DNA of 64,000 nt from Clostridia bacterium (GCA_017416185.1 JAFQDF010000012.1:32965-96964); one strand, 5' to 3'; counted from the stretch's first letter, positions 22,313 to 51,612 are shown. Notes: generated from the letters alone by a model not told the origin. Numbers and translations: made by a program.

Positions 22313-22725
22313 ATATAGATTCTATCAAGAACGGATACGTTATCGACCATATCAAGGCAGGTATGGCAATGGAGATATACCGTGTCTTAAAGCTGGGTAA
22401 GCTTGACTGCCCCGTTGCAATAATCAAGAACGCCGCAAGCGATAAGATGGGCAAGAAGGATATCATAAAGATAGATGCAATAATCGATCTTGACCTTAAG
22501 GCTCTCGGTTATATCGATCCGGATATTACAGTCAATTACATCAAGGACGGAGCTCTGGTGGAGAAAAAGCATCTTGAGCTTCCCGAACGCATAACCAATG
22601 TTATCAAATGCAAGAATCCCCGTTGCATCACCTCCTGTGAGCAGGAGCTTGACCACGTATTCAAGCTCACCGACCGTGAAAACAGGGTCTACCGTTGTAT
22701 TTACTGCGAATCAAAAGCTAAATAG
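22309..22725 (+). CDS. pyrI: Aspartate carbamoyltransferase regulatory subunit
   Basis: 138 aa with a C-terminal zinc domain (CKNPRC....YRCIYC). 4-nt overlap with pyrB. Confidence 0.88.
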
Positions 22726-22756
22726 TTTTTTGACCCAGTCAAAAAACATCCTTAAT

Positions 22757-22784
22757 TTTGCACTTTGCACTCTGCACTTTGCAC
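22757..22784 (+). repeat. Four tandem heptamers, TTTGCAC/TCTGCAC
   Basis: TTTGCAC TTTGCAC TCTGCAC TTTGCAC read directly, about 60 bp upstream of the pur promoter -35. Confidence 0.9.
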
Positions 22785-22843
22785 TTGTTCAGAATCTGCG
22801 ATTCGGAACATAAAAAGGACAGCCTTTGTTTACATTTGCGACA

Positions 22844-22872: not shown

Positions 22873-22887
22873 TACAAAGTAGTTAAA

Positions 22888-22966
22888 AGCGCCTTGTAAC
22901 TGACGGACACAAGTGGAATAAACCACAGGGAAACAAGGTGTATATTATGTCGACCGTCTGGGCAGT
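22888..22966 (+). promoter_or_regulatory. ZTP (pfl-motif) riboswitch aptamer
   Basis: CCUUGU-AACUGACGGACA-AGUGG..CCAC-AGGGAAAC-AAGG, a linker, then CGACCGUCUGGGCA. This matches the conserved ACUGGCG / GGGA / CCGCCUGGGCA cores with a compensated pseudoknot (GACGG with CCGUC). Confidence 0.8.
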
Positions 22967-22997
22967 CCTACTTTGATAGGACTGTCCATGTTTTTTT
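22961..22997 (+). terminator. Expression-platform terminator of the ZTP riboswitch
   Basis: GGCAGTCCTA-ctttga-TAGGACTGTCC then ATGTTTTTTT. The 5' arm overlaps the aptamer 3' pseudoknot strand, as expected for an ON switch. Confidence 0.75.
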
Positions 22998-23116
22998 GCA
23001 GAAAAACAAAGGACAGTCAAAATAAAAGAGAAGAGAGAAAAGAGAAGAGATAAGAGAAAAGGTAACTTTTCGCTTTGCGAAAAGTAGTTTTGATTATAAT
23101 TAAAGTGAGGATAGAT

Positions 23117-23605
23117 ATGAAAAAAATTGCGATCATTATGGGCAGCACAAGCGACCTGCCCGTTGTAGAAAAGGCAGTTGATACCTTAAAGGATTTCGGC
23201 GTGCCTTATGAAGTAAGAGTTATGAGTGCTCACCGTACTCCCGAGGCGGCAAGAGAGTTTGCGCTTAAGGCACGAGAGAACGGCTTTGGTGCTATGATAT
23301 GTGCCGCAGGCATGGCAGCTCACCTTGCAGGTGCCTTTGCGGCAAACACTACACTTCCCGTTATCGGTATTCCTGTAAAGGGCTCTACCTTTGACGGACT
23401 TGACGCCCTGCTTTCCACCGTTCAGATGCCCTCGGGTATGCCTGTTGCAACCGTTGCAATAAACGGCGCGGCAAACGCGGCTCTGCTTGCAATTCAGATG
23501 CTTGCAATAACCGACGAGGACCTTGCGGCAAAGCTTGACGCACAGCGCAAGGCTAATACAGAGAAGATCTATGCGGCTGACGAAGAAGTAAGAAATAAAT
23601 ACTAA
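23117..23605 (+). CDS. purE: 5-(carboxyamino)imidazole ribonucleotide mutase
   Basis: MGSTSDLP and SAHRTP motifs. Start moved to MKKIAIIMG (23117) behind GTGAGGA. Confidence 0.9.
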   Translation: MKKIAIIMGSTSDLPVVEKAVDTLKDFGVPYEVRVMSAHRTPEAAREFALKARENGFGAMICAAGMAAHLAGAFAANTTLPVIGIPVKGSTFDGLDALLSTVQMPSGMPVATVAINGAANAALLAIQMLAITDEDLAAKLDAQRKANTEKIYAADEEVRNKY

Positions 23606-23837
23606 TGAATTGACATCTCCGATGTCATGAATTGCGACACAGTCGCATAAATTGATGCTTCGCATCATGAATTGCACCTGTAGTGCATTAAGGTAGCTTT
23701 TCGGCAAGCCAAAAAGCAATTCAATTAAAATTGATTTTCGCTTCAGCGAAAATCTTCCTTAATGTGCATCAGCACAATTCATGGCAAAGCCAATTCATGT
23801 TGAAAACAATTCATGAAACCGTAGGTTTCAATTCATC
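23604..23837 (+). repeat. Hairpin-array element, copy A (purE-purM gap)
   Basis: Five left 9-mers of CATGAATTG type and five right 9-mers of CAATTCATG type, separated by short palindromes, with two longer central hairpins. 234 bp. Confidence 0.85.
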
Positions 23838-23885
23838 CTGAATTTTAAAAATAATATTTGATAAATAAATCGAAAGGCTAAAATT

Positions 23886-24926
23886 ATGGAAAAGAGTTTC
23901 AGCGAAAGCTATAAGGCATCCGGTGTTGACATTACAGCCGGCTATAAAGCAGTAGAATTAATGAAGAGTCATATCGCAAAGACTATGACCAGCGGTGTTG
24001 TAAGTGATATCGGCGGCTTCGGCGGTCTTTTTGAGCTTGACGTAAAGGGAATGGAGAGACCCGTTCTCGTATCCGGTACAGACGGTGTCGGTACCAAGCT
24101 AAAGCTTGCTTTCCTTATGGACAAGCACGATACGGTTGGTATCGACTGTGTTGCAATGTGTGTAAACGACGTTATCTGCGTCGGTGCAAAGCCCCTTTTC
24201 TTCCTTGACTATATCGCCTGCGGTAAGAACGTTCCCGAGAAGATAGCAAATATCGTTTCCGGTATTGCCGAGGGTTGTGTTCAGTCAGGAGCAGCACTTA
24301 TCGGCGGTGAGACCGCAGAGATGCCGGGATTTTATCCCATCGACGAGTATGACCTTGCAGGCTTTACAGTAGGTGTGGTTGACCGTTCTAAAATCGTAGA
24401 TAAGACTGCCGTTTGCGAGGGTGACGTTATCATCGCTCTTCCCTCCTCCGGTGTTCACTCCAACGGCTTCTCCCTTGTAAGAAAGGTATTTGACGTTGAA
24501 AAGAATGATATTAAGACACCCGTTGCAGAGCTTGGCGGTAAGTCTGTAGGTGAGACACTTCTCACTCCCACAAAAATATACGTTAAGCCTATGCTTGCTC
24601 TCTTTGATGAGGTCAAGGTAAAGGCAGTTTCCCATATCACGGGCGGCGGCTTCTATGAAAACATTCCGAGATCTCTTCCCAAGGGATTCGGTGCAAAGAT
24701 CGAAAAGTCTGCAGTTCGTATTCTCCCCATCTTTGATCTTCTCGCAAAGACAGGTAATATCCCCGAGAGAGATATGTTCAATACCTTCAATATGGGCGTT
24801 GGTATGAGCGTTGTTGTAGCTAAAGAAGATGCTGACAAGGTACTTGAGATCCTGCGTGCAAACGGTGAGGACGCTTACATCATCGGTGAGACCTACAAGG
24901 GCGAGGAGCCTGTGGTAATATGTTAA
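23886..24926 (+). CDS. purM: Phosphoribosylformylglycinamidine cyclo-ligase (AIR synthetase)
   Basis: 346 aa with AIR synthetase motifs ([22 protein letters not shown]). Confidence 0.92.
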
Positions 24927-25534
24927 AGCAGAGCTTTTTCGGCAGTCTTGCCGCAGGAGTTATGCTGACTATCGGTGCGGGAGTTTTCCTCTCCTGCGAC
25001 AACAAGGTAGTGGGCGCAGTTGCCTTTTCGGTGGCGCTTATGGTCATCTGTATGCTGGGTATGTACCTATATACAGGTAAGATCGGTATGCTTGCCGAGG
25101 ACTACAGCCCGGTAAATTTAGGCTGTGTTACGGTAGGTCTTATCGGAAACTACATAACAGCGACCTTAGGCGGTCTGGTTTTGGGTCTTGTTAAGCCTGC
25201 TCTTTATGAAAAGGCTGTAACGATGTGTGAAGCTAAATTAGAGCAGAAATGGTATATCGCAATTATCCTCGGTATCTTCTGCGGAATACTGATGTACACC
25301 GCAGTCAAGGGCTATGCCAACACCAAGCAGCCTATCATTTTAGTATTCTGTGTTGCGGTGTTTATCCTTTCCGGATATGAGCACTCTATCGCGGATATGG
25401 CGTACTTCGGTGTTGCAAGGATGTTCGGACTTAAAACAGTATGCTTTATCCTGCTTGTAGTCCTTGGTAACACTATCGGCGGTATGCTGATACCTCTCCT
25501 TATGAAAGGTGCAAAGAAAAATGAGAAAAACTAA
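24920..25534 (+). CDS. Short formate/nitrite transporter (FNT) family membrane protein
   Basis: 204 aa, multi-[15 protein letters not shown] (compare FNT GFEHSVANM) and C-terminal LGNTIGGML (compare NxxGNxxGG). Confidence 0.65.
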
Positions 25535-28046: not shown

Positions 28047-28280
28047 CATGAATTGAAGCCTATGGCTTCATGAATTGGTTTCACCATAAATTGATGCTTT
28101 GCATCATGAATTGCACCTATGGTGCATTAAGGAAGCTTTTCGGCTCACCGAAAAGCAATTCAATTAAAATGATTTTTGCCAAAGCAAAAATCTTCCTTAA
28201 TGTATCCGAAGGATACAATTCATGACCGTAGGTCAATTCATGTCACTGACAATTCATGACATCGAAGATGTCAATTCATC
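28047..28280 (+). repeat. Hairpin-array element, copy B (purH-purD gap)
   Basis: Same 234-bp architecture and the same 9-mers as copy A. The side hairpins differ in sequence but remain palindromic. Confidence 0.85.
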
Positions 28281-51406: not shown

Positions 51407-51424
51407 AAAATTTACCCAATAAAA

Positions 51425-51612
51425 GATAGCGCTCCACAAATGTGACAGTATACGGCGTATTATCACCGCATCCCAGGGGTGCCCAGGGCACCGACGACAA
51501 TCGCAGCTTGTTAAGCTCACGCTGTTTACATTCTGCCCGAATTGAAGCGATCCTGTTACATCCCTTCGGCCGCTGCCCCTTTTAATTGACACGCGGCACC
51601 TCTATCGTTGTA
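51425..51612 (-). promoter_or_regulatory. Lysine riboswitch (L-box) aptamer
   Basis: The minus strand reads GAUAGAGGUGCC...GGGGCAGCGGCCGAAGGG...ACUGUCAC...GUGGAGCGCUAUC. This matches the conserved L-box cores seen in B. subtilis lysC and T. maritima. Confidence 0.85.

Follow-up and report, generated by a model that had tools for sequence, protein, structure and literature searches.

Paired hairpin arrays in a clostridial pur operon and their kinship to repeats associated with PF05635 four-helix-bundle genes

The pur operon of a Clostridia bacterium is interrupted at two junctions by arrays of small hairpins. Are these arrays elements which serve the pur genes, or repeats of another origin inserted among them? 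The operon lies in a stretch of 64,000 nucleotides, all of which was analyzed, and which is referred to below as the window. The question was approached by looking at the anatomy of the arrays, their occurrence in related operons and in other genomes, and the genes found next to them.

Anatomy of the arrays and their occurrence in pur operons

Base-by-base reading of the window identified two arrays, denominated copies A and B, which measure 234 bp each and are built on one plan (Table 1). An earlier note on this DNA had reported a second copy of exactly equal length, and an anatomy of linkers, palindromes, centre and mirrored right half. Both descriptions are correct, and the latter holds for either copy. 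Left (F) arms share the scheme RATGAATTG, CATGAATTG, CATAAATTG, CATGAATTG, CATTAAGG, in which linkers are separated by four palindromes. Centres are made by two A/T-run hairpins placed around AATTCAATTAAAA. In each copy the right (R) arm is the mirror of the left arm, and similarly includes four palindromes; in copy B the corresponding loops are GAA, GTA, ACT and GAA. The copies are 85% identical. Centre and linkers are conserved, and outer hairpins differ by paired changes. Allowing one mismatch at most, 17 matches to the 9-mer linker were found in the 64 kb, and 16 of these fall inside the two copies. The total is close to that expected from shuffled sequences (mean 15.3), and therefore the signal resides in the clustering and order of the 9-mers, not in their count. 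Folding z-scores relative to shuffles are -6.8 and -9.1 for the two copies. The two hairpin arrays are genuine.

Table 1. Coordinates of the arrays and of neighbouring sequences in the window
Feature	Position	Strand	Composition or location
Copy A, whole	23604-23837	+	purE / purM gap
Copy A, left (F) arm	23604..23693	+	five linkers (AATGAATTG, CATGAATTG, CATAAATTG, CATGAATTG, CATTAAGG), four mini-hairpins
Copy A, left-arm mini-hairpins	23613-23625, 23635-23645, 23655-23665, 23675-23685	+	palindromes ACATctccgATGT, CGACacaGTCG, ATGCttcGCAT, CACctgtaGTG
Copy A, centre	23696..23754	+	two A/T-run hairpins flanking spacer AATTCAATTAAAATT
Copy A, central hairpin 1	23696-23717	+	GCTTTTCGGCaaGCCAAAAAGC, A/T-run
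Copy A, central hairpin 2	23733-23754	+	GATTTTCGCttcaGCGAAAATC, A/T-run
Copy A, right (R) arm	23757..23837	+	linkers CCTTAATG, 3x CAATTCATG, CAATTCATC; four mini-hairpins
Copy B, whole	28047-28280	+	purH / purD gap
Copy B, left (F) arm	28047..28132	+	linkers CATGAATTG, CATGAATTG, CATAAATTG, CATGAATTG, CATTAAGG; four mini-hairpins
Copy B, centre	28135..28192	+	hairpin GCTTTTCGGCtcaCCGAAAAGC, spacer AATTCAATTAAAAT, hairpin GATTTTTGCcaaaGCAAAAATC
Copy B, right (R) arm	28195..28280	+	linkers CCTTAATG, 3x CAATTCATG, CAATTCATC
Hairpin and heptamers	22725..22790	+	pyrI to ZTP riboswitch; hairpin GTTTTTTGACccaGTCAAAAAAC, CCTTAAT, 4x tandem heptamer TTTGCAC
Heptamer-like run	about 23025-23060		purine-rich, ahead of hairpin ACTTTTCGCtttGCGAAAAGT
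Single hairpin	23065..23085	+	ACTTTTCGCtttGCGAAAAGT, just before/into purE start region

Pfam matches identify purE (AIRC) before and purM (AIRS) after copy A, AICARFT/purH before and purD (GARS) after copy B, in agreement with the flanking genes named earlier. A ZMP/ZTP riboswitch and its terminator are located upstream of purE. Since a search of the + strand within copies A and B gave no terminator-like site, co-transcription of the arrays with the pur genes is plausible. Riboswitch, Pfam neighbours and lack of an internal terminator similarly make plausible the earlier statement that the element is transcribed in a riboswitch-controlled polycistron. No promoter-like signal was found bracketing the copies on the + strand, or in their centre.

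Location in a polycistron controlled by the ZTP riboswitch and a very stable folding might denote a cis-acting RNA dedicated to the operon, which, as processing site, stability element or translational insulator, would set the purE, purM-purH and purD-purL ratios. The right arm of copy B stops about 24 nt ahead of the purD start, a spacing like that found between arrays and start codons at the four-helix-bundle genes described below, and intervening sequences with paired arms are substrates of RNase III (PMC4990558). Related operons tell against this role. Neither the window PurM nor P0002 gave a record in exact look-ups, and graded PurM homologues were therefore used to reach orthologous operons. 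Two of these (L138 and L139, PurM 98%) have a copy A with 97.9% identity, and carry copy B at its site in inverted orientation. The copy A site is empty in L132 (PurM 98%) and L140 (97%), where a gap of 14 bp is found, and also in L133 and L134 (both 94%) and L141 (93%); in close relatives without copy A the purE-purM gap spans 14-19 bp. The copy B site is occupied in L132 by a remnant (a hairpin of the central type, CCTTAAT and 4x TCCGCAT), in L140 by a copy with variant left-arm linkers, and in L134 by a full element, and contains no element in L133 and L141. L133 and L134 encode identical PurM proteins, yet differ at this site.

Aligned with the window copy B, its L138 counterpart shows 84% identity as reverse complement and 73% in direct orientation. 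Since the flanks are collinear, it results either from inversion in place or from re-insertion in the opposite orientation; nothing else changed. The same hairpins recur flipped between copies, those of one arm of a copy being found in the other arm of another. Between two strains copy B differs by 16% where copy A differs by 2%, and a simple vertical history is therefore inadequate. Neither target-site duplications nor clean insertion boundaries are visible on comparing filled and empty pur sites, and the element ends carry no direct repeats. A dedicated pur RNA is unlikely, given that copy A is missing at 97-98% PurM identity, that copy B comes and goes between strains with the same PurM and may be inverted, and that the same element is found beside unrelated genes, be these convergent, divergent or co-directional. 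Among the roles envisaged in the earlier note, those of pur-dedicated processing, stability or insulator element are disfavored by the same observations; the data agree with two others, the structured MITE-like selfish element and the protein-binding scaffold.

Spread of the family and structure of its hairpins

Further copies in relatives, which had been suggested as an object of search, were found in all gene contexts. Using three consecutive linkers as pattern, and one genome per species, at least 117 stretches were identified, mostly in Clostridia MAGs from gut or rumen. Oscillospiraceae, Acutalibacteraceae, Christensenellales and 'Eubacteriales' are represented among the matches listed. 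Arms, the units of the family, contain about four linkers each. Among the matches listed, arms are solo, or organized as FFFFRRRR doublets (the commonest form, 155-180 bp), as RRRRFFFF doublets, which are rare, or in long arrays, which expand through tandem duplication of two-unit blocks. All these elements are intergenic, are found in both orientations, and have neighbours that may be co-directional, convergent or divergent. Orientation of solo arms relative to flanking genes showed no clear bias. F arms seemed enriched against stop codons, but this is accounted for by the TGA present within each F linker. A scan of viral contigs gave 14 matches, with L118, L123 and L128, which feature unrelated plain tandem 9- or 14-mers, left out. 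A literature search with the 9-mer retrieved primers only. ARG-box, CRISPR, integron attC, type III antitoxin and REP readings were discarded on the ground of architecture.

Sequences located between linkers are predominantly self-complementary. Near-complete palindromes are 329 out of 398 unique inter-linker spacers, versus 58 in shuffles. In the 101 distinct spacers of 11 nt, 95.4% of cells are paired, versus 65.7% in shuffles. Covariation, another feature that the earlier note had proposed to look for, was found: the score of the 11-nt spacers is 0.699 versus 0.136, and was equalled in 0/500 shuffles. All four Watson-Crick pair types are present at three positions, and pairing falls to 21-41% when partner columns are shifted. 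The mini-hairpins are constrained, or generated that way. Two alternative folds had been put forward for the element. The string of local hairpins is strongly supported by palindromic spacers, covariation and folding of isolated arms, which as single strands are predicted to form hairpins exactly 5 nt apart. The rod of nested helices gains no support from within the elements, as none of the 28 variant linker positions found in 26 elements (doublets) is compensated in the mirror partner.

Polarity of the hairpins follows the orientation of the linkers. GNA/GNNA loops (GAA, GCA, GTA, GCAA, GTAA and GTCA included) and G.T wobbles are found on the CAATTCATG strand. On this strand triloops of the G..A type are 91, versus 5 of the T..C type, and G.T wobbles are 37, versus 13 A.C mismatches (p = 9e-4); GNYA and GNRA loops occur at about equal frequency. 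The most frequent spacers on the same strand are GCGAAGC, GCGCAGC, CCGAAGG and GCGTAGC. Mini-hairpins of the type GCGNAGC / GCGNNAGC have the same sequences as these, and are extraordinarily stable as DNA, and far less as RNA; they withstand SSB binding and nucleases, and are found at primase recognition sites (PMC13037366). At phage and plasmid origins such hairpins sit singly, whereas the hairpins of the family form arrays with fixed 5-nt linkers. Because the loop preferences suit DNA mini-hairpins better, the folded species could be single-stranded DNA rather than mRNA, and it is towards single-stranded DNA that the sequences lean.

Association of the arrays with PF05635 genes

Clustering of the ORFs found near arrays singled out, as commonest neighbour, a protein of about 118 aa, encoded at 10 loci among the arrays listed. 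The gene either follows a doublet at a distance of 16-40 bp, or is located between F and R arms. The protein matches PF05635 (23S rRNA-intervening sequence protein; E = 5e-26), TIGR02436 (four helix bundle protein; E = 1e-29) and PDB 2RLD, an entry with five chains (E = 1.5e-35). The ORF of 23S rRNA intervening sequences (IVS) and the accessory protein Avd of diversity-generating retroelements (DGR) both belong to PF05635/TIGR02436, a family which forms pentamers. PF05635 is the sole recurrent partner of the arrays: the clustering of recurrent neighbours revealed neither a transposase nor a reverse transcriptase. PF05635 proteins are not known to have a biochemical activity able to move DNA.

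The association was evaluated also in a metagenome sample seeded from the protein, and blind to arrays, which included 68 loci and 165 control windows. A linker/palindrome array was found within 350 nt upstream of the PF05635 gene at 54 of the 68 loci versus 1 of the 165 controls, several of the array-negative loci being missed merely through the exact-match rule. Close homologues carry CATGAATTG arrays, and arrays of the CATGAATTG type adjoin protein clusters 9 and 11. Distant clades have arrays of like architecture but other linkers (ATGAAATG, GTGAAATA/TATTTCAC, TACTTCAT, GATGATATC, ATATCATT, AGTTATAT, GTGAATAG). The linker type tracks the PF05635 protein cluster, and within each PF05635 locus both arms bear one shared unit, inverted. 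Arrays are hence tightly linked to PF05635 genes, clade by clade. No paper tying the PF05635 family to linker/hairpin arrays was found in the literature, and the partnership of gene and repeat is apparently unreported. The window contains no PF05635 gene, and 107 of the 117 array-seeded loci listed (about 90%) have none within 1.5 kb. The array had been considered as a dedicated 5' leader of the PF05635 gene, an idea which was dropped since a strong promoter match lies directly upstream of the array at 12 of 57 loci only.

The relationship between gene-bearing and gene-less arrays is best appreciated at L164. The full element found there includes in the order an F arm, CATT, the hairpin AAGTTTTTCGCagaGCGAAAAAC, AATTTAATTAAAA, a ribosome-binding site and an ORF of 119 aa, followed by the hairpin AAGTTTTTCGCagaGCGAAAAAC again, AATG and an R arm. 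Copies A and B are collinear with the L164 element once the ORF is removed (identity 66-67%), and all have the order arm, CATT, hairpin, AATTyAATTAAAA, hairpin, AATG, arm. The ORF occupies the position of the centre of the window copies, between the two central hairpins, and the window spacer AATTCAATTAAAA corresponds to the L164 sequence immediately ahead of the ORF. By this collinearity, the window copies represent a full PF05635 element minus its gene.

Arrays that precede the start codon of the gene encoding the protein, with upstream sequences on their other side, and repeats co-varying with the protein, might be taken as operators in duplex DNA. The 9-mers would be bound by the four-helix-bundle protein, or by another factor, and orphan copies would be additional sites of a regulon. 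In the family, linkers are 5 to 17 nt apart, and sites at such variable distances would be out of phase on a duplex. Covarying palindromic spacers, strand-asymmetric loops and G.T wobbles moreover matter only in single strands, and in diversity-generating retroelements the pentamer of the related Avd has a defined RNA element as its ligand. An operator array is thus quite unlikely.

Known systems and the probable nature of the pur elements

Gut-1 RNA (RF01706) has 43 members from human-gut metagenomes, and has been classed as a covarying sRNA of function not known (Weinberg et al. 2010, PMC2864571). Its consensus includes four (G)UGAAAU linkers and three covarying hairpins with cUUCg/cGAAg loops (PMC2864571). 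The architecture of this single arm, conserved linkers parted by covarying short hairpins, is the same as that of the window arms. The window element differs in the linker, which is CAUGAAUUG, and in its form, a palindromic doublet whose centre holds two hairpins; Gut-1 has been described as a single arm, as an sRNA, and with no partner gene. Among 20 protein-seeded loci with (G/A)TGAAAT linkers, 17 have Gut-1 matches above gathering, which precede the PF05635 gene by 130-240 nt. Matches at loci with GTGAAAT linkers score 50-90 bits. Some of the (G/A)TGAAAT loci have a second Gut-1 match on the opposite strand, which is the other arm, and many are located directly downstream of tRNA clusters or 5S rRNA. 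The GUGAAAU-linker variant of one arm is the Gut-1 RNA. IVS, S23 or four-helix proteins are not mentioned in the accessible part of the original Gut-1 supplement. The window has no Gut-1 match at gathering (50 bits), and the interval 23550-23900 has none at E <= 10. The Rfam search suggested in the earlier note was run, and no model matches the element. The note had recognised no family; this holds for the window copies in Rfam, but the sister Gut-1 and the PF05635 parent had been missed.

The listing of Gut-1 among covarying sRNAs could indicate that the pur arrays are free-standing small RNA genes, and the inversion in place of copy B between strains that they work as an invertible switch (inverton) for purD. 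The arrays lie inside an operon, and are bracketed by neither promoter-like nor terminator-like signals on the + strand. Gut-1 matches themselves precede PF05635 genes, those on the opposite strand being the other arm. Inversion would alter little, because the element is near-symmetric, and the centre has no promoter. Both possibilities are highly improbable.

A precedent is offered by the intervening sequences of 23S rRNA. The Coxiella IVS has an S23p ORF, an inverted-repeat stem and heptamer repeats before the start codon, is excised by RNase III, and has been proposed to be mobile, with the ORF serving mobility (PMC4990558). The IVSs of Leptospira and Coxiella and the parent of the pur elements both encode PF05635. 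They are also alike in having pairable inverted arms, short tandem repeats just upstream of the ORF and ORF-less forms, and in being inserted in transcribed regions; IVSs are regarded as selfish, possibly mobile. In contrast, IVSs sit in helix 25 or 45 of 23S rRNA, the window copies in pur mRNA (purE|purM, purH|purD), and the arms of Coxiella and Leptospira IVSs are plain 28-bp stems, those of the window arrays of linkers and mini-hairpins.

REP/BIME/REPIN, BOX, Correia and other MITEs are likewise small, structured, intergenic, multi-copy, co-transcribed and polymorphic among strains. The pur elements are short and ORF-free, have terminal inverted repeats and many copies, and differ in presence or absence between strains, all features of conventional non-autonomous transposons. 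Inverted doublets of hairpin repeats recall REPINs, and with the REPIN/RAYT system is also shared the presence of a cognate gene flanked by its own co-evolving repeats. The pur arrays could accordingly be DDE-family MITEs, or REP/REPIN elements moved by a RAYT-type tyrosine transposase. However, target-site duplications are missing. Recurrent neighbours include PF05635 only, and neither Y1 nor other transposases; the parent element encodes a four-helix-bundle protein only, not a HUH or DDE transposase. Stems vary and linkers are conserved, the opposite of REPs, and the GTAG/CGTC head is absent. Arm units, finally, follow the PF05635 clade. Mobilization by a conventional transposase is therefore very unlikely. 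The element ends that such a transposase would have to match are ATGAATTG...CAATTCAT.

Tandem heptamer repeats (STRR) of cyanobacteria, with small dispersed repeats embedded in them, were reportedly described by Mazel in 1990 and Elhai in 2008. They resemble the family in being short-unit tandem arrays, at times broken by tiny covarying hairpins, and differ because hosted by another phylum, and because mostly plain heptamers, with a hairpin not found between every unit. On plasmids, plain tandem heptamers form inverted arrays on both sides of genes annotated as 'four helix bundle protein'. Genes so bracketed have been identified in Nostoc, Aulosira, Gloeocapsa and Planktothrix, in whose plasmids the arrays directly bracket PF05635 genes, and in Bernardetia, Chondrinema, Treponema and Chlorohelix. 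In one example, 4x AATTCGT precede and 4x ACGAATT follow the ORF. Genes bracketed by heptamers are found within operons, at hsdS|hsdR, cas2|cas1, RND adaptor|permease, helicase|methylase and DISARM|BREX junctions.

On the whole, the window copies are probably MITE-like, gene-less members of a family of IVS-like PF05635 elements, and not a pur-specific regulator. The general kind is already known, as Gut-1-like structured repeats and IVS-like selfish elements; the linker variant of the window copies is undescribed. Members inserted in the pur operon would merely be transcribed as part of the pur mRNA, in which they would fold into a stable string of mini-hairpins with 5-nt single-stranded linkers, the arms possibly pairing. 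Insertion may be tolerated owing to the self-folding of the element, a property which it shares with rRNA intervening sequences. Linkers are candidate recognition sites of a four-helix-bundle pentamer that would be encoded elsewhere in the genome, and the element is probably a binding site of this protein. Should the element affect pur expression, for instance through RNase III-type processing or as a barrier to exonucleases, this would be a by-product and not its raison d'etre; we infer neutrality for pur expression and, as a possibility, RNase III processing.

A broader picture may be tentatively drawn, which we regard as possible though not as the likelier outcome. PF05635 genes and inverted short-unit arrays might constitute one widespread class of tiny, transposase-free mobile elements, in which the pentamer would bind the four to five single-stranded linkers exposed between mini-hairpins, as RNA or single-stranded DNA, and thereby favour copying of the element. 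rRNA IVSs, Gut-1, cyanobacterial heptamer arrays and the pur elements would be faces of this class. Taken alone, the pur-operon element is a harmless-looking repeat. Since the gene-repeat association is strong and clade-specific, the element ties together features that have long been without function, the 23S rRNA IVS ORF (S23p, an Avd relative) and Gut-1 RNA, and by extension the short tandem heptamer arrays of cyanobacteria and other phyla. Protein function becomes a direct question: is the array bound by the pentamer encoded with it, on which of the two strands, and in the form of RNA or of DNA? For annotators, structured inserts in operons, including defence and tRNA/rRNA operons, would be better read as insertions than as regulators.

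Two further hairpin-bearing sequences lie upstream of copy A (Table 1). The stretch between pyrI and the ZTP riboswitch, made by a hairpin, CCTTAAT and four tandem heptamers, is possibly a related half-module, the likeness being one of architecture alone. The same plan recurs in the purH-purD gap of L132, where hairpin and CCTTAAT are followed by 4x TCCGCAT. A hairpin of the element-centre type reaches the purE start region, and is preceded by a heptamer-like purine-rich run.

Modules in and around the pur operon

The short repeats and leaders found in the window, along with one gene of the pur operon, are listed in the table. The module in front of the ZTP riboswitch resembles in architecture the purH-purD gap of the relative L132, where a hairpin is similarly followed by CCTTAAT and by four tandem TCCGCAT heptamers. 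It may be a plain-heptamer half-element, belonging to a superfamily common with the arrays of the pur operon. The regularly spaced 7-mers GGCGGAA and GAGGATT, located elsewhere in the window, are probably coding repeats. The hairpin found ahead of purE is of a type shared with the centres of the elements in copies A (purE-purM gap) and B (purH-purD gap).

Features of the window
Feature	Positions	Strand	Location
Hairpin GTTTTTTGACccaGTCAAAAAAC, CCTTAAT, tandem heptamer TTTGCAC x4	22725-22790		pyrI-ZTP riboswitch gap
ZMP/ZTP riboswitch and intrinsic terminator	22886-22988		upstream of purE
Purine-rich heptamer-like run (AAGAGAA-type units), hairpin ACTTTTCGCtttGCGAAAAGT	23025-23085		riboswitch terminator-purE gap
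Formate/nitrite-transporter-family gene	24920-25534		pur operon, purM-purN gap
GAGGATT x3, regular spacing	39261-39321		
GGCGGAA x4, regular spacing	40290-40362		
T-box leader	46570-46817		
Lysine riboswitch	51419-51612	-	

Variation among relatives and array layouts

The formate/nitrite-transporter-family gene is present in the relatives L132 and L141 and absent from L133, L134, L138 and L140, and the gene content of the pur operon thus differs among close strains. In L138 and L139 (8567-8838) copy B is inverted in place relative to the window (28047-28280), with a divergence of 16%; in the same genomes copy A diverges from that of the window by only 2%. This combination suggests either long-lived orientation alleles or replacement via recombination.

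Arrays vary also in layout. Four solo left (F) arms, all in a single orientation, are interspersed with small unrelated ORFs in L053 (1-4000) in a cassette-like fashion, and the same spacers also host a second linker type, GTGAAGTT, with hairpins of its own. Other arrays have expanded by tandem duplication of two-unit blocks, reaching 13-15 units each (L158, 243-615; L172, 1141-1513; L157, 1141-2208); in these, the linkers CAAATCATG and CAATTCATG alternate.

Genomic settings of four-helix-bundle genes

Annotated plasmids (L222, L226, L230, L231, L232) have four-helix-bundle genes located among the members of defence operons: between hsdS and hsdR of a type I R-M system, DISARM drmD and BREX pglX, cas2 and cas1, helicase and methylase genes, or upstream of cas1. 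The match position in the Monoglobus record has no gene listed in the PLSDB gene table, which is incomplete. Arrays of the Gut-1 type (Rfam RF01706) accompanied by a PF05635 gene are found directly 3' of clustered tRNA genes or of 5S rRNA (L193, L203, L205, L211, L213, L215 and others), and therefore lie inside highly transcribed stable-RNA operons. This setting is reminiscent of that of intervening sequences, which lie in rRNA (in 23S rRNA for those that carry a PF05635-family ORF).
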